NCBI GenBank assembly: GCA_050998515.1 | Contig: JBPCQC010000008.1 | Span: 7,601 to 71,600 of the forward strand | DNA: 64,000 bases | From: Verrucomicrobiales bacterium | GTDB lineage: Bacteria; Verrucomicrobiota; Verrucomicrobiia; Verrucomicrobiales; V1-33 | Direction: 5' to 3' | In this document: one piece after another, positions 10,824-63,249 of the stretch | Layout of the letters: each line of letters starts with the position of its first letter | Position numbering within the stretch: the stretch's first letter is position 1 | Made by a program: the position numbers and the translations under genes | The notes under the pieces: generated by a model | Told to the model about the DNA's origin: nothing | The model's database searches: none | Seen by the model: only the letters and a program-made list of their open reading frames with translations

Positions 10824-11537
10824 ATGGAGCCGTTGGAAACCCGTATGAATTACCGGTTTACAAATTCCCTCCTGCTTGCGCAGGCCTTGACGCATCCCAG
10901 TCTGGCTTACGAAACTCAAGGCGCCCCGTTTGACAATCAGCGTCTCGAGTTTTTGGGCGATGCGGTGCTGCAACTCATTTTTACTCGCGAACTCTTCCTT
11001 GACTTTCCAATGCTGGACGAAGGGACGCTGACGAAACTCCGATCCCAACTCGTGTCCAGTAATGCGCTGCATCGTTATGCCCTTCGGCTGAAGCTTGGTT
11101 CCTATCTCAAAATGGGAAAGGGCGAAGCGGCCTCTGGAGGTCGTTCGCGCCCATCCACACTCGCTGATGCATTTGAAGCACTCGTGGGTGCCCTCTATCT
11201 CGATAGCGGACTGGCCGAGGCGACGACCTTCGTCCTGACTCTATGTGAGACTGAACTGCAGCAAATGGATGTTGATCCCGACGAACTTAATCCAAAGGGG
11301 CAGCTCCAGGAACTAGTGCAAAGCGCCGCCGGAGTCAGCCCCAGCTATTCCATTGTCTCACAAGACGGCCCCGACCATCGTAAGAATTTTGTCGCCCAGG
11401 TGGTGTGGGACGGCGTCATCCTGGCCACCGGGTCCGGCCTTAGCAAAAAACAGGCCGAGACTGCGGCTGCCCGCCAGGCCCTGGATCATCCGTTGGTTCG
11501 ACAATTAAAACTGTCATTCTCGGCGGATGGCGAGTAA
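10824..11537 (+). CDS. rnc: Ribonuclease III
   Basis: ALTHPS, NQRLEFLGDAVL, ADAFEALVGA, dsRBD NPKGQLQE...SKKQAE; start could be 10803. Confidence 0.96.
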   Translation: MEPLETRMNYRFTNSLLLAQALTHPSLAYETQGAPFDNQRLEFLGDAVLQLIFTRELFLDFPMLDEGTLTKLRSQLVSSNALHRYALRLKLGSYLKMGKGEAASGGRSRPSTLADAFEALVGALYLDSGLAEATTFVLTLCETELQQMDVDPDELNPKGQLQELVQSAAGVSPSYSIVSQDGPDHRKNFVAQVVWDGVILATGSGLSKKQAETAAARQALDHPLVRQLKLSFSADGE

Positions 11538-36037: not shown

Positions 36038-36694
36038 CTACCAATCGCCTCCTGGCCTTGCAAAGACGGATTCCGCTCGCCCAGTGTGAGACGTTTGCCA
36101 CCACCTTCCCGTAAGGTTCTCACCCCTGCCTGTCTTCATGGACGGGCTGTGAGCGTCGGCATCTCGAACATCGGTGACTTGGTTACACGCAGCAGGACGG
36201 CGAATGCGAATTTGAGATGACGGATCGTTAAGAAATGGGATTAGTAAGTCGACGACATCGCCTGGCGGATGATCATCCAGCAAGTCGCAAAGACGATTGA
36301 TCGGCGCTTCCGGCAGAAGACCCGTTCCTGTGGGAATAGTGAGCTTTGCTCGAAATGACTGGTCAGCAAGAATCCTGATAACTGCCGGATGCACTCGCGG
36401 TCCCAGCGATTGAAGAATCCGTTTTTCGCCCCACGCATCATCGCTGGTTTCCACATCGAAAACAAAATGCCTTACCGCCTGAGTGATTTGAGCGGCGTTC
36501 CAACGCTGGGCCCCTTCGGCGTCATGTTCGGCCTCGAGCCGTCCTTCGGCTATCGCGGTCCACAGGCCGGGATTCTTCACAAAATCCTTGAACCTCGGGA
36601 ATCGGGTCCCATGAGATTTCCGGAACACCCAGACAGCCGCGATGGCAAACGCCGCGATGAACAGCCAGCAAAAGGGTGATCGAATCAAAGTCAT
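36038..36694 (-). pseudogene. Membrane-anchored hypothetical protein, probably 3'-truncated at a HEAT-like repeat
   Basis: N-terminal TM helix; protein-like up to LIPFLNDPSSQIR (about 36205), then loses coding character. Confidence 0.5.
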
Positions 36695-36806
36695 TGCTTG
36701 CGACGATAGCGATCCAGCGAATTCCTTGCCACAAAAAGAACAAACACCGCTGCGCACTCGCAGTGTGTCGGCACATCGCGCCCACCCTTTACAAGCGAAC
36801 AAAACC

Positions 36807-36854
36807 ATGAACACCAAAGAGCTCATTCGCCTTGGCGTGCCTGAAGGCATTTAG
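36807..36854 (+). pseudogene. 15-codon stub resembling the N-terminus of long-form RtcB
   Basis: MNTKELIRLGVPEG then TAG inside the heptamer array; A-rich leader; the xLxxLGxxxG pattern is also seen in the CCA-enzyme tail in this window. Confidence 0.55.
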
Positions 36855-36885
36855 CATTTAGCATGTAAGATTGAGGATTGGGATT
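36847..36885 (+). repeat. Left heptamer array of the four-helix-bundle cassette
   Basis: GCATTTA GCATTTA GCATGTA AGATTGA GGATTGG GATT. Confidence 0.8.
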
Positions 36886-36891
36886 CTTACG

Positions 36892-37254
36892 ATGAACAAG
36901 GAAGAACTGAAGAAACGAACGAAGGCCTTTGCCCTTCGAGTGATCTCCCTGGTGGATCATTTGCCAATCACGTCCAAGGGGCGCGTGCTGGGCGATCAAT
37001 TGTTGCGCAGCGGCACGTCCGTAGGCGCAAATTATCGGGCGGCTTGTCGCGCACGATCGACCGCGGAATTTGTCGCAAAGCTCGGGAACGTTCTCGAGGA
37101 GGCGGACGAAAGCGGATTTTGGCTCGAACTGATCGTGGAGGGCGGATTGCTCCCGGCGAAGCGGGTGGAAGCGCTTCTCGCAGAAGCCAATGAACTCACG
37201 GCGATTTTCTTCACTGCGCGACGCACAACATCGACCAAAAATCCTAAATCTTAA
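36892..37254 (+). CDS. Four-helix-bundle protein (23S rRNA IVS protein / TIGR02436-like)
   Basis: LKKRTKAFALRVI, QLLRSGTSVGANYRAACRARS.AEFVAKL, EEADESGFWLEL, EANELTAIF. Confidence 0.95.
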   Translation: MNKEELKKRTKAFALRVISLVDHLPITSKGRVLGDQLLRSGTSVGANYRAACRARSTAEFVAKLGNVLEEADESGFWLELIVEGGLLPAKRVEALLAEANELTAIFFTARRTTSTKNPKS

Positions 37255-37259
37255 ATCCT
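37239..37259 (+). repeat. Right heptamer array, inverted relative to the left array
   Basis: AAATCCT AAATCTT AAATCCT; reverse complement AGGATTT AAGATTT AGGATTT resembles the left AGCATGT AAGATTG AGGATTG. Confidence 0.8.
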
Positions 37260-37261
37260 AT

Positions 37262-38515
37262 ATGGTAAATTTCCGCCAGTGGGGGGAGGGCCTTGAAGCT
37301 GAGCCGGTGAAGCAGATGGCCAATGCGTGCGCGCTGCCGGTGGCGGTGGCGGGCGCGCTGATGCCGGATGCCCATGTGGGCTATGGGCTTCCCATCGGCG
37401 GCGTACTTGCGACGGACAACGCGGTGATCCCTTACGCCGTTGGGGTGGACATCGCGTGCCGGATGAAGCTGTCTGTGTTCGAGGGCAAGGCGAATATGAT
37501 CGCGGGTCAGAAGGGTCGCCTGGCCAATATCATCGAGAGCGAAACCCGCTTCGGCATGGGCTGCGAATTCAAGCAGCGCCGGCAGCACGACGTGATGGAC
37601 GAGGACTGGAGCGTTTCACCCGTGACACAGCGTTTGCGCGATAAGGCGTGGGCGCAACTCGGCACCAGTGGTTCGGGCAACCATTTCGTCGAGTTTGGTG
37701 CGTTTTCTGTGCCAGATGTTGCCGCGGCTGCTGTAGCTGGGGTCTGTGACCGCGGATCCGGCCTCACAGAGACCGGCTACAGTTCCGGCCTCGCAGAGGC
37801 CGGGTACAACGTGCCCTCGGGCGAATATGTGGCGCTGCTCTCGCACAGCGGATCGCGGGGCACCGGCGCGCAGGTTTGCCAGCACTACAGCCGCATCGCC
37901 ATGAATCGCCGCGCGGATCTGCCCAAGGAACTCAAGCATCTGGCGTGGCTCTCGCTCGAAGACTCGGACGGCCAGGAATACTGGGCCGCGATGAATCTCA
38001 TGGGTCGTTACGCGGCTGCAAATCACGCGCTCATTCATCACCACATCGCGAAAGCACTCGGCCTGCGCGTAATCCTTGACATCGAGAATCATCACAACTT
38101 CGCGTGGAAGGAACGCCACGTGGTGAACGGAGTCGAGCGCGAGGTCATCGTGCACCGCAAGGGCGCAACCCCGGCGGCCACGGGCGTCCTCGGTATCATC
38201 CCAGGTTCGATGGCCTCGCCCGGATTCGTGGTGCGCGGCAAGGGCGAACCCGAATCGCTGCACTCGGCTTCGCATGGCGCCGGCCGCGTGATGAGCCGCA
38301 CCAAGGCGATGCAATCCTTCACCTGGAGCGCGACGAGAAAACTGCTCGCGGAGCGCGGTGTCGAGTTGCTCAGCGCCGGCCTCGACGAAGTGCCGGGCGT
38401 CTATAAGGACATTCACACCGTCATGGCTGCCCAGACTGATCTGGTCGACGTCCTCGGACGCTTTGATCCCAAGCTCGTGAAAATGTGCCCCGCCGGCGAG
38501 AAGGCGGAGGACTGA
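37262..38515 (+). CDS. rtcB: RNA 2',3'-cyclic phosphate--5'-OH ligase RtcB
   Basis: MPDAHVGYGLPIGG, VGVDIAC, LGTSGSGNHFVE, HSGSRG, HHN, HRKGAT, PGSM, SASHGAGR, DEVPGVYK. Confidence 0.95.
   Translation: MVNFRQWGEGLEAEPVKQMANACALPVAVAGALMPDAHVGYGLPIGGVLATDNAVIPYAVGVDIACRMKLSVFEGKANMIAGQKGRLANIIESETRFGMGCEFKQRRQHDVMDEDWSVSPVTQRLRDKAWAQLGTSGSGNHFVEFGAFSVPDVAAAAVAGVCDRGSGLTETGYSSGLAEAGYNVPSGEYVALLSHSGSRGTGAQVCQHYSRIAMNRRADLPKELKHLAWLSLEDSDGQEYWAAMNLMGRYAAANHALIHHHIAKALGLRVILDIENHHNFAWKERHVVNGVEREVIVHRKGATPAATGVLGIIPGSMASPGFVVRGKGEPESLHSASHGAGRVMSRTKAMQSFTWSATRKLLAERGVELLSAGLDEVPGVYKDIHTVMAAQTDLVDVLGRFDPKLVKMCPAGEKAED
37732..37809. repeat. REP elements embedded in-frame in rtcB
   Basis: TGTAG-CTGGGGTCTGTGACCGCGG-AT-CCGGCCTCACAGAGACCGG-CTACA-GTT-CCGGCCTCGCAGAGGCCGG-GTACA matches the reverse complement of the 20380 array unit. 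Confidence 0.85.
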
Positions 38516-38638
38516 ATGAGTTTGAGCTGGCCGCGGTGCCGGAGCCCTCCGCGCTTCTCAGCCTCGCGCTCTCCGTGGGCTAGGCAATTCTGCACCGCCT
38601 CAGCCGAGGCTTTGCCATTCGGTGAAGGACCTGCGGCC

Positions 38639-39580
38639 TCAAACGGCGGACGCGGCGGCAGCGTCTGGAATGGCCCTCTGGCAGTTTGCCACCAGTTGCT
38701 CGAGGCGCCGTCCATACTTGACGTAACTTTCGAATTGCTCGCGTGCCTTCTCTTCAGGATCGCCGTTCTGTTTTTTGCTTAAATCATGAAACACCACACT
38801 GACGTGCGGTTCGATGCTGACAAATCCGCGGTATCCGCTGCGCAGCAGGTCTTCCATAATTCGCGGCACCTGCCCGTCGCCTTCGCCCGGCATGGTATAG
38901 TCGAGGTCCTTTCTGGAAGGGTTCCAAATCCCATCCTTGACGTGGACGTGGGCGATGTGCGCCTTGACCGCCTGATAAAACAACCACGAATCCTGACGCT
39001 GGCCGCGACGATCGCGATCTTCGTTAAAGCAGGGATTGCCGGTGTCGAAGACCCATTTCAAGCCCGGCACATTCTCGAGCAATCGCCGGGCATTGGTAAC
39101 TGACATCCCGCCGTAGTTCATGCAGTTTTCGTGCACAGAGATGATGCCGGCATCATCGAAACGAGCCTTGATTTCGCGCAGCCGGCGAAAGCGCTCCTGC
39201 TCCATTTGATCTGGAGCGTCTGAACCATCCGCATTGAGCCGCGGTTTGTAACTCATAATCCGCACGATCTTCGTATCGAGGCGCTGCATTTTGGGAATGG
39301 CGCGCGCAATTTCCGCCTTCGTAATAGCGAAATCATCCTCGATGTCATGGGCCCAATTGCCGATCACGGAGCCAAATCCTGCTACGCCAATTCCCGCCTC
39401 GTCCAATCGGGCACAGAGCACATCAAAGGCACGATCTGATAAATCGTGAACGTTTCGGACCGGCTCGTCTCCCACCTCCACGTTGCGCAATTCGATGTGT
39501 TGCCAGCCCAATTCCGTGGTGGCCTTGATCTGTGCCTCGATGGCATTGCCTGCTTCGTCTCCGATACCGGTGAGAATCAT
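38639..39580 (-). CDS. Sugar phosphate isomerase/epimerase (xylose-isomerase-like TIM barrel)
   Basis: GIGDEAG, VHENC, FDTGN, HVHVKDG, PGEGDG, SIEPH. Confidence 0.88.
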   Translation of the reverse strand: MILTGIGDEAGNAIEAQIKATTELGWQHIELRNVEVGDEPVRNVHDLSDRAFDVLCARLDEAGIGVAGFGSVIGNWAHDIEDDFAITKAEIARAIPKMQRLDTKIVRIMSYKPRLNADGSDAPDQMEQERFRRLREIKARFDDAGIISVHENCMNYGGMSVTNARRLLENVPGLKWVFDTGNPCFNEDRDRRGQRQDSWLFYQAVKAHIAHVHVKDGIWNPSRKDLDYTMPGEGDGQVPRIMEDLLRSGYRGFVSIEPHVSVVFHDLSKKQNGDPEEKAREQFESYVKYGRRLEQLVANCQRAIPDAAAASAV

Positions 39581-61147: not shown

Positions 61148-62476
61148 TTAAATTGCGGACTGCTCGCGCTGCCCGCGCACCCAGGCGAGGGCTTCGTCCT
61201 TTGTGCGCAGGGTGCCCTCAAGCTGGCGTGACTCGATTTCCTTGAGCAACCCTCCGAGTTGAGGTCCGGGCGGGATACCCACTTCCATTAGATCGTGACC
61301 CGTCACCAGCCGCGGCGGTATCAACGGCTCGCGCGCGAATTCTTCGAGTTTGGCTTCGAGAAATTCATAGTTGTCGAGTTGGCCATGGCTGCCCAGACAG
61401 TCCACCCGGTGCAACTCGAGCTCATGGGCAAATGTGTCGCGCGCCATAAAGCGCCGGAGTTTCGACGTTCGCATCTGCTGCACGTTCATAAACGCCATGT
61501 GCTGCCCGACCATTTCGACCACCGCGTCTGTTATTAAGTTTGGAAAGCGAAGACGCCGCAGAATGGCCTCGGTCATCCGAGCGCCAACTTTGTCGTGCTC
61601 ATTAAAGCGGAAACGTTGAGCCAGCGGGTCCCAACAACGGGTGGCCGGTTTGCCGATGTCGTGGAGCAGGGCTGCCAGCACCAGCGCAATCGGAGCTTCG
61701 GGGGGCAGCTTCGATAGCATGAGCCGGGTATGCACGAAAACGTCCCCTTCGGGATGAAATTGGGGCGGCTGTTCGCACCCCTTGAGGGCGATGATTTCCG
61801 GAAGGATGTGCTCCATTAATCCGCTTTCACAGAGAAGATCAAAGCCGGAGACGCGGCGCGGGTGTTCCAGCGTCTTCACCAACTCCTGGCGGACACGTTC
61901 CTCCGCGATGTGCCGGATGCTCGGTGCCGCCTCACTGAGAGCCGCCCAAGTGGCGCCCTCGATCGTAAAATCGAGCACCGCGGCAAACCTCACCGCGCGC
62001 ATAAGGCGCAAATGGTCCTCGGAAAACCGCGCCTTCGCATCGCCAATCGCGCGCAGCACGCGGCCTTCCAGATCCCGCTGCCCGCCCACGTAGTCGATCA
62101 CACGGTCTTCAATCGGATCGTAGAACAGTCCGTTGATGGTGAAATCGCGCCGTTGCGCATCCCGCTGCGCATCGGAAAAGCGGACGTCTTCAGGCCGGCG
62201 GCCGTCGAGATACAGGCCGTCTTCGCGAAAGGTTGCCACTTCGAAGGCCCCGCTTCCTGATTTGACGATCATGACGCCGAAATGCGCACCGACCGATAGC
62301 GAATGCGGAAAAATCCGCTCAACTTCTGACGGCCGGGCGCTGGTGGCGATGTCGTAGTCATGCGGCGAAACACCGCGCAAGAGGTCACGCACGCAGCCGC
62401 CAGCGAAAACCGCTTCGTGGCCGCCTTCACGCAGACGGCGCACAATCTTTTCGGCTTCCGCCCGAAGTTCGTTCAT
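61148..62476 (-). CDS. cca: CCA tRNA nucleotidyltransferase with HD domain
   Basis: GGCVRD, DYDIAT, EVATFR, RRDFTIN, EDHLRLMRA, HPEGDV, HDIGK. Confidence 0.88.
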   Translation of the reverse strand: MNELRAEAEKIVRRLREGGHEAVFAGGCVRDLLRGVSPHDYDIATSARPSEVERIFPHSLSVGAHFGVMIVKSGSGAFEVATFREDGLYLDGRRPEDVRFSDAQRDAQRRDFTINGLFYDPIEDRVIDYVGGQRDLEGRVLRAIGDAKARFSEDHLRLMRAVRFAAVLDFTIEGATWAALSEAAPSIRHIAEERVRQELVKTLEHPRRVSGFDLLCESGLMEHILPEIIALKGCEQPPQFHPEGDVFVHTRLMLSKLPPEAPIALVLAALLHDIGKPATRCWDPLAQRFRFNEHDKVGARMTEAILRRLRFPNLITDAVVEMVGQHMAFMNVQQMRTSKLRRFMARDTFAHELELHRVDCLGSHGQLDNYEFLEAKLEEFAREPLIPPRLVTGHDLMEVGIPPGPQLGGLLKEIESRQLEGTLRTKDEALAWVRGQREQSAI

Positions 62477-62517
62477 CGCAACACTTTGGCCGCGAGCTTG
62501 CCCCTCGTCGAGGGCAT

Positions 62518-63249
62518 CTACGGCAGACTCAAACCCAGCGAGTATCCCGCGATCGGTTCCCCGGGCATTTGCTCGCCGAGCAATGCATCATTGAAGTGCC
62601 ACCACTCGGTATCAAGAAACGAAAAGCCGGCCGCTTTCATCGCGCGTTGCAAGAGCCGCAAACGATCGCCGATTTTCGAATGGGTTCCGGAGTAAACGAA
62701 ATAAGCCTTGTTCGAAAAATCGTCGAACTTCGAGGGCATCGGGAGCTCGCGGCCTTCCAGGTCGACCAGTGTGACGTCGACGGCGCGGCCATAACAATGC
62801 TTTGACCATCCCGAGCGGGGGTCAGACACAAAGAGACCAGTCGGATGGGCCCGCCACAAATGCAGGTGGGCCTCGGGCGGCCGATACGCATCCCAAATCC
62901 GAAGGCCACAGCCGTGGCCGCGCAAAAATGCCTGCGCCGTTTTTAACTTTCGCGCCGTCTGCCGGTTCAGCAAACAAGGCATTTCAGGCGGATAGATCGC
63001 CCGCCTGAGGATGTTGTTTTTGGTGGCGTAGTGAAGGTCCACGAGGATGGTCGGATCCACATCCACAATACTGACCAAGCCAAATGCCGCAGCCTTTTCC
63101 TTGATTCCAGTGACGTCAAGACGCTCCGCGCGCCTGACTTGACGGGGGTGAGAACAACCTGAGAAAAAGCCGATGAGCGCAGTGCTGAGAACAATGCGGA
63201 GAAACCGCGGGTGGAGGCGAATGAACACAAACAGTGGGCTCTTATGCAC
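62518..63249 (-). CDS. ddpX: D-Ala-D-Ala dipeptidase (peptidase M15D, DdpX/VanX-like), probable lipoprotein
   Basis: WDAYRP, SKHCYGRAVD, EWWHF; lipobox FSGC. Confidence 0.82.
   Translation of the reverse strand: MHKSPLFVFIRLHPRFLRIVLSTALIGFFSGCSHPRQVRRAERLDVTGIKEKAAAFGLVSIVDVDPTILVDLHYATKNNILRRAIYPPEMPCLLNRQTARKLKTAQAFLRGHGCGLRIWDAYRPPEAHLHLWRAHPTGLFVSDPRSGWSKHCYGRAVDVTLVDLEGRELPMPSKFDDFSNKAYFVYSGTHSKIGDRLRLLQRAMKAAGFSFLDTEWWHFNDALLGEQMPGEPIAGYSLGLSLP

Follow-up and report, generated by a model that had tools for sequence, protein, structure and literature searches.

We report that the gene for the RNA ligase RtcB in a Verrucomicrobiales bacterium (GenBank assembly GCA_050998515.1) is split near its 5' end by a small cassette, which carries an intact gene for a four-helix-bundle protein between mutually inverted arrays of tandem heptamers and is likely to represent a class of mobile units present in the operons of many bacterial phyla. 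The locus lies in a window of 64,000 nucleotides (contig JBPCQC010000008.1, positions 7,601 to 71,600 of the forward strand), which is the whole stretch of DNA analyzed here and to which positions refer unless a contig is named. The explanation that we favor overall, and consider on balance probable, is that a 422-nt cassette of the intervening sequence (IVS) type has come to lie in the 5' part of rtcB, that the N-terminal domain (N-domain) of the enzyme has mostly been lost, and that its catalytic body is now a third cistron. The DNA history within this explanation, namely a stub, an insertion and a truncated but intact enzyme, is very likely.

Anatomy of the interrupted rtcB locus

The locus comprises the following features:

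36731-36769, + strand: conserved leader or promoter-region element, common by eye to the metagenome rtcB loci L116 and L120
36807 (ATG) to 36852-36854 (TAG), + strand: stub open reading frame (ORF) of 15 codons, MNTKELIRLGVPEGI followed by the stop; from the sequence, the ORF list and the starts of orthologues
36847-36885, + strand: 5' heptamer array, GCATTTA GCATTTA GCATGTA AGATTGA GGATTGG GATTC, with the inverted-repeat arm at 36849-36879
36849-37270, + strand: whole cassette, 422 nt, with bounds from the inverted arms and homology with L116 and L120
36892-37254, + strand: intact four-helix-bundle gene, 120 aa, of the 23S rRNA intervening-sequence protein family (PF05635/TIGR02436), related to Avd of diversity-generating retroelements (DGRs)
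37239-37270, + strand: 3' heptamer array, AAATCCT AAATCTT AAATCCT ATATGGT AAAT, with the inverted-repeat arm at 37240-37270
37262-38515, + strand: RtcB catalytic body, 417 aa, with the whole PF01139 domain and the active-site residues kept

This layout of a stub, two arrays, an intact cargo gene and a restart of RtcB at ATG 37262 had been put forward in an original prediction made from the letters of the sequence alone, and it holds in every position. The stub consists of 14 codons of the ancestral rtcB followed by an ATT codon and a TAG stop supplied by the first repeat units. Stops in three frames are present in the 5' array (at 36852, 36859 and 36866), while the stop of the cargo gene (TAA 37252-37254) falls within the 3' array. 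Tandem Repeats Finder reports a period of 7 both at 36847-36864 (GCATTTA, 2.6 copies) and at 37239-37260 (AAATCCT, 3.1 copies), and the 5' edge of the cassette at 36849 coincides with the start of homology with the L116 cassette. The cargo protein matches PF05635 (E 5e-15, 56 bits with a cut-off of 33.8) and TIGR02436 (E 6e-24, 84.3 bits with a cut-off of 24), and its residues 6-114 of 120 match chain A of PDB 2RLD (E 5.5e-18). No recombinase gene is carried by the cassette. The left junction is backed by an independent assembly, a contig of run X2 from another study that is identical over 36707-36953; contigs of run X4, with about 95-96% identity, span 36828-36981 and 37163-37341, the second diverging from the window before 37163.

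Retention of the leader element in L116 and L120 implies that the stub, the cargo gene and the RtcB body share the old rtcB transcription signals. The element consists of an A-rich stretch and then a short hairpin (about 2188-2229 in L116 and 1040-1083 in L120), also seen upstream of an HNH nuclease gene in L003, and may be a promoter or a leader structure. In L116, it is itself preceded by a gene for a sigma factor of the extracytoplasmic function (ECF) type. No sigma-70-like promoter or plus-strand terminator was found in 36600-38700, a weak negative, as the consensus may not fit this phylum.

Complementarity of the mirrored arrays

The two arms are 31 nt each and 84% complementary. Their ungapped inverted-repeat score of 18.5 is well above those of 1500 random placements in the same genome (mean 8.0, sd 1.1, maximum 13.5). 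As RNA, the arm-arm duplex has an energy of -24.8 kcal/mol, compared to -13.35 +/- 2.98 kcal/mol in dinucleotide-preserving shuffles, with just 6 of 2000 shuffles matching it. Folding of 36840-37275, as had been suggested, yielded a minimum-free-energy structure in which the arm stem encloses the entire cassette, with the energy of the whole 436-nt fold being unremarkable (z = -0.39). The claim that the arrays are mutually inverted and that the flanks can pair is thus upheld by the complementarity, the duplex energy and the fold. The observation named in advance as refuting it, complementarity no better than in shuffled AT-rich sequence, was not made, as is evident from the score and the shuffle controls.

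The stub, the lost N-domain and the RtcB core

The RtcB body is 61-78% identical to five orthologues from the genomes of relatives, and it shares 76-78% identity with full-length orthologues. All five genome orthologues display about 77 additional N-terminal residues ahead of a conserved W/Y-RQWG motif, and all five open with the pattern M-N/K-x-x-x-L-I-x-L-G-V/I-P, as does the stub (for example, MNSQSLIHLGVPEG...). The stub likewise fits the consensus MNTKDLIRLGVPxG, derived from an alignment with 22 metagenome orthologues that also bear the N-domain, and the domain is present in most of the metagenome orthologues. Homology with the orthologues ends after codon 14 (36848) and returns at FRQWG (37271); between these points, about 63 codons are missing (residues 15-77 as numbered in L116 and L003), and the cassette stands in their place. 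Of the long N-domain typical of the RtcB group of this clade, the window hence retains only the first 14 residues, in the form of a separate stub. Two central claims of the original prediction are borne out by these comparisons: the stub is the original RtcB start, as it matches the beginning of the N-domain in five of five genome orthologues and the consensus, and the cassette took the place of most of that domain, standing where about 63 of its approximately 77 residues belong.

The N-domain has no model in Pfam, and in the L003 orthologue the match to PF01139 does not begin until residue 92. Among 80 metagenome orthologues, there are 14 whose open frame offers too little room for it 5' of the core (with starts such as MSITYRQWG or MNPESQSPAPWRQWG); a fifteenth, L117, looks interrupted, and in L118 about 20 residues have been deleted from within the domain. 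These short-frame orthologues, together with the L118 deletion, indicate that the N-domain can be lost and is, judging by the alignments, dispensable. A likeness of the stub to the tail of the CCA-adding enzyme had also been pointed out. The motif in question is indeed present in the CCA-adding enzyme of the window (ORF 61151-62587, minus strand), but the case for homology is weak: BLASTP of the RtcB N-domain against the CCA-adding-enzyme tail gave no match, and a profile comparison returned a probability of 20% (E 1e-3) over 29 columns. A putative kinship between the start of the N-domain and this tail is, then, weakly supported.

The body covers the RtcB profile from end to end (PF01139, positions 1-423; E 6.5e-85, 286 bits), with the genome scan having matched positions 1-92 and 133-423. 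In alignment with the structures 1UC2 and 4DWR, six columns are unchanged, at D95, C98, H203, H234, H329 and H404 of P. horikoshii RtcB, which we take to be its metal-binding and guanylylation positions. With a complete core and the active-site residues kept, the enzyme looks functional. Its start codon (ATG 37262-37264) sits in a deviant repeat unit, ATATGGT, where L116 has AAATCCT-type units throughout; it is in frame with the body and lies 7 nt past the stop of the cargo gene. We also observed two tandem 27-nt units at 37757-37808, each an imperfect palindrome, in frame within RtcB. They belong to a segment of about 27-28 residues for which the orthologues L005 and L006 give no alignment, and a similar peptide is encoded at contig C15:41482-41598.

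Filled, empty and solo-array sites in relatives

We surveyed, within the flanks available, 80 metagenome rtcB loci and 19 genome rtcB loci (L002-L020). A PF05635 gene was detected at two of the 80 metagenome loci, namely L116, whose cargo is 76% identical and the nearest relative found anywhere, and L120 (65% identical), and at none of the 19 genome loci. Both cassettes display AAATCCT/TTTAGGA units, as in the window, but they lie past the stop of a full-length rtcB and ahead of the HNH nuclease gene, whose first few codons are replaced. This HNH gene follows rtcB in L002-L004, L117-L119 and L141. The spacer between the two genes is a mere 3 nt in L141, constituting an empty site, and 24 nt in L117; it holds a lone, geneless array of CTATCAA-type units in L118, and two lone arrays with a hairpin, again geneless, in L119. 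These solo arrays resemble the remains of decayed cassettes with a different type of repeat. In the window, ATGAGT... comes directly after the rtcB stop and is possibly what is left of the HNH start; the locus lacks the HNH gene itself, and the sole match in the genome is 33-34% identical and located elsewhere.

Given the 3' spacer location in L116 and L120 versus the 5' coding region in the window, related cassettes thus hold two positions at one locus in sister lineages, alongside empty and decayed states. The proposed alignment of orthologous loci has therefore yielded both the extent of the deletion (about 63 codons) and an empty site, the latter, in L141, being in the rtcB-HNH spacer. Taken with the comparable architecture found in many phyla (see below), the filled, empty and solo-array sites argue for the earlier suggestion of a transposase-less mobile cassette.

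Cassettes elsewhere in the genome

The genome contains eight PF05635 matches, all of which are flanked on both sides by mirrored short tandem arrays with a unit specific to each copy. When all these four-helix-bundle genes were examined for inverted flanks, as had been recommended, six of the eight scored above the maximum of 1500 random placements. The copy on C71 scores 10.5 against a null 99th percentile of 11.0, and its arrays were paired by a second method; the copy on C6 fails the inverted-array score test. A second invaded gene was recovered on contig C42 (about 1986-2450, locus L021), where a cassette lies inside the coding region of an N6/N4 DNA methyltransferase (PF01555). Intact homologues, whose flanks are 75-88% identical, read ...FGEPDVTLLREKDGRLRVKVNGVDVF...; the C42 copy extends the tip of a hairpin, short in these homologues, by 137 residues. 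There, the host frame traverses both arrays and the cargo gene, which is in another frame, without a stop.

Across the genome, we counted 150 tandem arrays of 7- or 8-mers, and seven inverted array pairs devoid of cargo with loops of 35-99 nt. The cargo-less inverted heptamer pairs are:

C114:69250-69402
C38:4254-4371
C62:23183-23260
C136:3151-3259
C87:251537-251659
C89:95474-95574
C93:7067-7214

Three of these have GGTTATT-type units and two have CAGAATG-type units, and they resemble miniature derivatives of the cassettes. The pair on C89 is about 2 kb from a paralogue of the methyltransferase and may be within an open frame. The genome also encodes longer relatives of the cargo protein with a TIGR04258 'four helix bundle suffix' domain (L026 and L027, at C87:26986-27192 and C6:1978-2184). 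These have mirrored arrays too, which are partly in the coding frame and there give rise to SDQSD-type peptide repeats.

Distribution across phyla

Five cargo proteins of this genome were used to query one genome per species, which gave 586 relatives; the results below come from the best 80 of them. Their records are labelled Verrucomicrobia, Planctomycetes, Acidobacteria, Bacteroidota, Chloroflexi, Armatimonadota, Nitrospirota, Ignavibacteria, Binatia, a cyanobacterium and others, and span more than 10 phyla. Flanks were long enough for scoring at 76 loci, and 69 of these lie above the 99th percentile (12.0) of 960 control placements at the same loci, with the control maximum of 30 probably reflecting a neighboring cassette. 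A second subfamily, studied in an independent sample made up of the top-scoring Pfam matches from 28 genomes of this phylum, behaves comparably, with 19 of 28 loci above the control 99th percentile of 13.5. Matches to PF05635 are widespread in the phylum: 40 of the 61 genomes sampled hold at least one, and two verrucomicrobial genomes of 2.6-2.7 Mb (G056 and G076) hold 16 and 17.

The repeat period of the 69 upstream arms is 7 in 51 and 8 in 16, as opposed to the controls (n=365), where a period of 3 is the commonest (102), followed by 7 (31) and 8 (25). The arms have a median length of 31 nt; the upstream one is rich in G and T, 41 of 65 arrays containing GATT, and the downstream one is its complement. 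The units vary between copies, even as the two arms of a single copy agree. The upstream gene ends at a median of 5 nt ahead of the upstream arm (57 of 69 found), and in 46 of 66 cases a downstream ORF has a start between -3 and +26 nt relative to the point where the downstream arm ends. By a crude measure based on the longest open frame, the neighbors are co-oriented in 54 of 65 cases upstream and 52 of 65 downstream. From this spacing and co-orientation, the arms can be taken as the bounds of a unit occupying an operon spacer. The neighbors include nuoD upstream (6), nuoE downstream (6), HlyD-type (6) and AcrB-type (7) genes, and those for iPGM, enolase, LpxC and PglZ/BrxL, among others; none of the best 80 related loci has RtcB beside the cassette. 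A preference for defense loci was considered and rejected, the neighbors being mostly housekeeping genes. Likewise, iPGM is not a gene split by the cassette, but lies simply upstream in two of the 80 loci and downstream in another. Nor do the arrays generally act as three-frame stop signals, which is true of the window copy and of only 15 of 65 arrays overall.

All-against-all blastn of the loci showed shared synteny but no recent transposition. Several acidobacterial loci have common flanks, so some copies have long been inherited vertically. In one genome, two loci with a common repeat unit (L103 and L106) derive from a duplication that reaches well past the cassette, and the ends of the unit cannot be read from it. 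Two further arrangements were observed, namely two tandem four-helix-bundle cassettes on one contig in L028 (170-449 and 730-1006), and about 600 nt more after the cassette in L046 than in its syntenic relative L065. Overall, we regard the existence of a class of mobile cassettes as likely.

Relationship to known systems

The accessible text of an account of the 23S rRNA IVS of Coxiella burnetii (PMC4990558) describes a 'selfish' element of 428 nt with terminal inverted repeats and a 28-bp stem that is cut in its middle by RNase III. Two to three tandem heptamers, their number varying among strains, precede its S23p ORF, which is reported there as decaying and not translated. As far as that text goes, the 23S rRNA IVSs of Coxiella burnetii and Leptospira resemble the cassette in having a PF05635 cargo, no recombinase gene, and a patchy, apparently horizontal distribution. 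The Coxiella element additionally matches it in size (428 versus 422 nt), in its stem of about 28-31 bp, and in having heptamers of varying copy number just upstream of the ORF. The differences are that the elements described there lie in helix 9, 25 or 45 of 23S rRNA, whereas the present one is in a protein-coding gene and its relatives are in operon spacers; that both arms of the cassette are themselves arrays of 7- or 8-mers; that cutting by RNase III is documented there for the rRNA elements and would only be expected for the cassette; and that the Coxiella ORF is described as decaying, while that of the cassette is intact. Thus, the S23p/PF05635 cargo, the terminal inverted repeats or stem, and the upstream tandem heptamers are all those of an IVS, but the element is not located in a 23S helix. 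Its location in rtcB and lack of 23S similarity therefore lead us to file it as IVS-like rather than as an rRNA IVS.

The cargo is also related in four-helix-bundle fold and family to Avd, the accessory protein of DGRs, as treated in the accessible part of PMC10053308, but unlike Avd it has no adjacent reverse transcriptase. The five RVT_1 matches of the genome are on C40, C59, C120 and C109, and thus neither on the contig with the window (C30) nor on any other that has a PF05635 gene, in a search that did not extend to template or variable repeats. As no contig with a PF05635 gene encodes a reverse transcriptase, we exclude a DGR accessory gene.

Like miniature inverted-repeat elements and REP/BIME-type palindromes, the units are short, structure-forming and dispersed intergenic repeats, with cargo-less hairpins represented in this genome. 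They differ in that the cassette arms are tandem arrays with a copy-specific unit and in that many copies include a gene for a conserved protein. We saw nothing to connect them with a known transposase, for instance the one associated with REP elements. The heptameric 'STRR' repeats of heterocystous cyanobacteria are a further likeness. Integron cassettes with their attC sites are comparable as promoter-less single-gene units in a co-oriented array or operon, with a site conserved in shape rather than sequence. In contrast to them, the present class has no integrase or attI, its two arms pair across the gene instead of a single attC folding, and its units are scattered through housekeeping operons. 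A search of Rfam returned nothing relevant for the cassette with a limit of E 10, and nothing relevant for nine related loci with a limit of E 0.1. In searchable full text, with subscription-journal papers and supplementary files beyond reach, we found no description of this architecture outside rRNA.

Proposed mode of action and alternative explanations

We propose that a single transcript, initiated from the old rtcB signals, would carry the stub, the cargo gene and the body, with the last being translated as a third cistron, most likely by coupling to termination of the cargo gene. In this transcript, the arrays would pair to form a duplex of about 30 bp, looping out the cargo gene. The duplex may be a substrate for RNase III, as in 23S rRNA IVSs, such that the cassette RNA would be separated from the host message and not spliced. 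The cassette is likely to belong to a very widespread recombinase-less class that lodges in operon spacers and occasionally inside genes. Actual processing of the stem by RNase III in vivo is a tentative proposal, to which we would give a little less than an even chance. A gene for RNase III is present in the same window (about 10869-11240; C30:18469-18840).

Several alternatives to the above need to be weighed. That the arrays are chance AT-rich repeats, or an assembly artefact, might be suggested by the occurrence of short AT-rich arrays within a GC-rich genome; with a score exceeding all 1500 random placements, a duplex energy matched by only 6 of 2000 shuffles, an identical contig in the run of another study, and a like architecture in 69 of 76 relatives, its probability is negligible. 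More serious is the possibility that rtcB is dead, with the insertion having inactivated the gene and left the body as an unexpressed remnant. Its restart codon is without an obvious ribosome-binding site, its expression is a matter of deduction, and the HNH partner that follows rtcB in relatives is gone from this locus. Nevertheless, the body runs for 417 codons without a stop or frameshift at 76-78% identity to its orthologues, it retains six out of six active-site residues, and an in-frame ATG has arisen within the terminal repeat unit. Moreover, relatives of about 95% identity span the junction regions, and natural forms of RtcB without the N-domain exist, all of which makes a dead gene improbable. 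Still less probable is that the four-helix-bundle gene is a true partner of RtcB, such as an RNA-binding regulator encoded in the same operon, with regulatory arrays in place of the ends of a mobile unit. Such a partnership could account for the linkage of rtcB, in the three lineages represented by the window, L116 and L120, with related cassettes whose cargo is 65-76% identical, and for a divergence of the cargo like that of RtcB (76% versus 77%). However, such a gene lies within the flanks of only two of the 80 metagenome rtcB loci and of none of the 19 genome loci, its position shifts from the 5' coding region to the 3' spacer, the site in L141 is empty, and like cassettes occur at nuoD/nuoE, HlyD/AcrB, iPGM, enolase, LpxC and BREX genes.

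The most speculative element of the original prediction was that the cassette is an mRNA intervening sequence whose excision and rejoining, possibly by RtcB itself, would restore an in-frame RtcB in a self-regulating loop. Its statement on length is correct inasmuch as removal of exactly 422 nt (2 mod 3) fuses codon 14 to body codon 4 in frame; the arms do pair, and the interrupted gene does encode an RNA ligase. However, the in-frame relation has a one-in-three probability by chance, and the joined product would still be short of about 63 residues. RNase III products carry a 5'-phosphate and a 3'-OH, and RtcB does not join such ends. According to PMC4990558, it is RNase III that cleaves the stems of related elements, and the resulting ends would accordingly be unsuitable for RtcB. 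Further, RtcB is not found beside the 80 other cassettes (the best 80 of 586), most of which are intergenic and need no joining, and no contig skips the cassette in four runs, a point on which contigs alone are weak evidence. We hence abandon the self-regulating splicing idea as very improbable.

Returning to an IVS-type insertion with a translated downstream body, certain observations weigh against it. As to the order of events, the insertion may have hit an allele that an in-frame deletion had shortened beforehand, or insertion and deletion may have been one event; the in-frame gene left by exact removal of the cassette, given its one-in-three chance, mildly favors entry into an already shortened allele. 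At the junctions compared, we saw neither a duplicated target site nor any other trace of a mechanism, no purine run resembling a Shine-Dalgarno sequence precedes ATG 37262, and transcription, processing and translation of the body are all deduced from the DNA. None of the 80 related and eight own-genome loci displays 23S rRNA similarity, and the equation with rRNA IVSs therefore rests on architecture and protein family. Finally, the arms of the 69 cassettes have no excess of sense-strand G.U-compatible mismatches (46 versus 58 of 273) and therefore give no sign of selection on an RNA stem, and a cause of the arm symmetry at the DNA level is equally possible.

Conclusions

The IVSs of 23S rRNA have been known for decades, but to our knowledge it is still unexplained where they come from, how they move and what their four-helix-bundle ORF does. 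The present findings suggest that IVS-like units are common outside rRNA, in operons for respiration, efflux, glycolysis and defense across more than 10 phyla, and also inside protein-coding genes. As a hallmark of the class, they point to mirrored arrays of 7 or 8 nt in which the sequence is free and the symmetry kept. It is this combination of free sequence and fixed symmetry in the heptamer arms, across operons of many phyla, rather than rtcB itself, that constitutes the main interest of the locus. The class would offer hundreds of natural cases for studying how such units move, why they employ heptamers, and what an Avd-like protein does without a retroelement. For annotation, it would account for short 'orphan' stubs and N-terminally shortened enzymes beside genes labelled 'four helix bundle protein'.

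Processing by RNase III at the stem also supplies a testable idea as to how bacteria tolerate insertions in their operons. Going further, the class might consist of transposase-less mobile genes acting as mRNA intervening sequences that are cut by RNase III, with the Avd-like protein perhaps working with host reverse transcriptases to copy the unit or to build and homogenize the arrays, a proposal that we offer as speculation and consider unlikely at present. Were it true, self-removal from the host transcript would permit a low-cost colonization of operon spacers, and even of the ORFs of essential genes.

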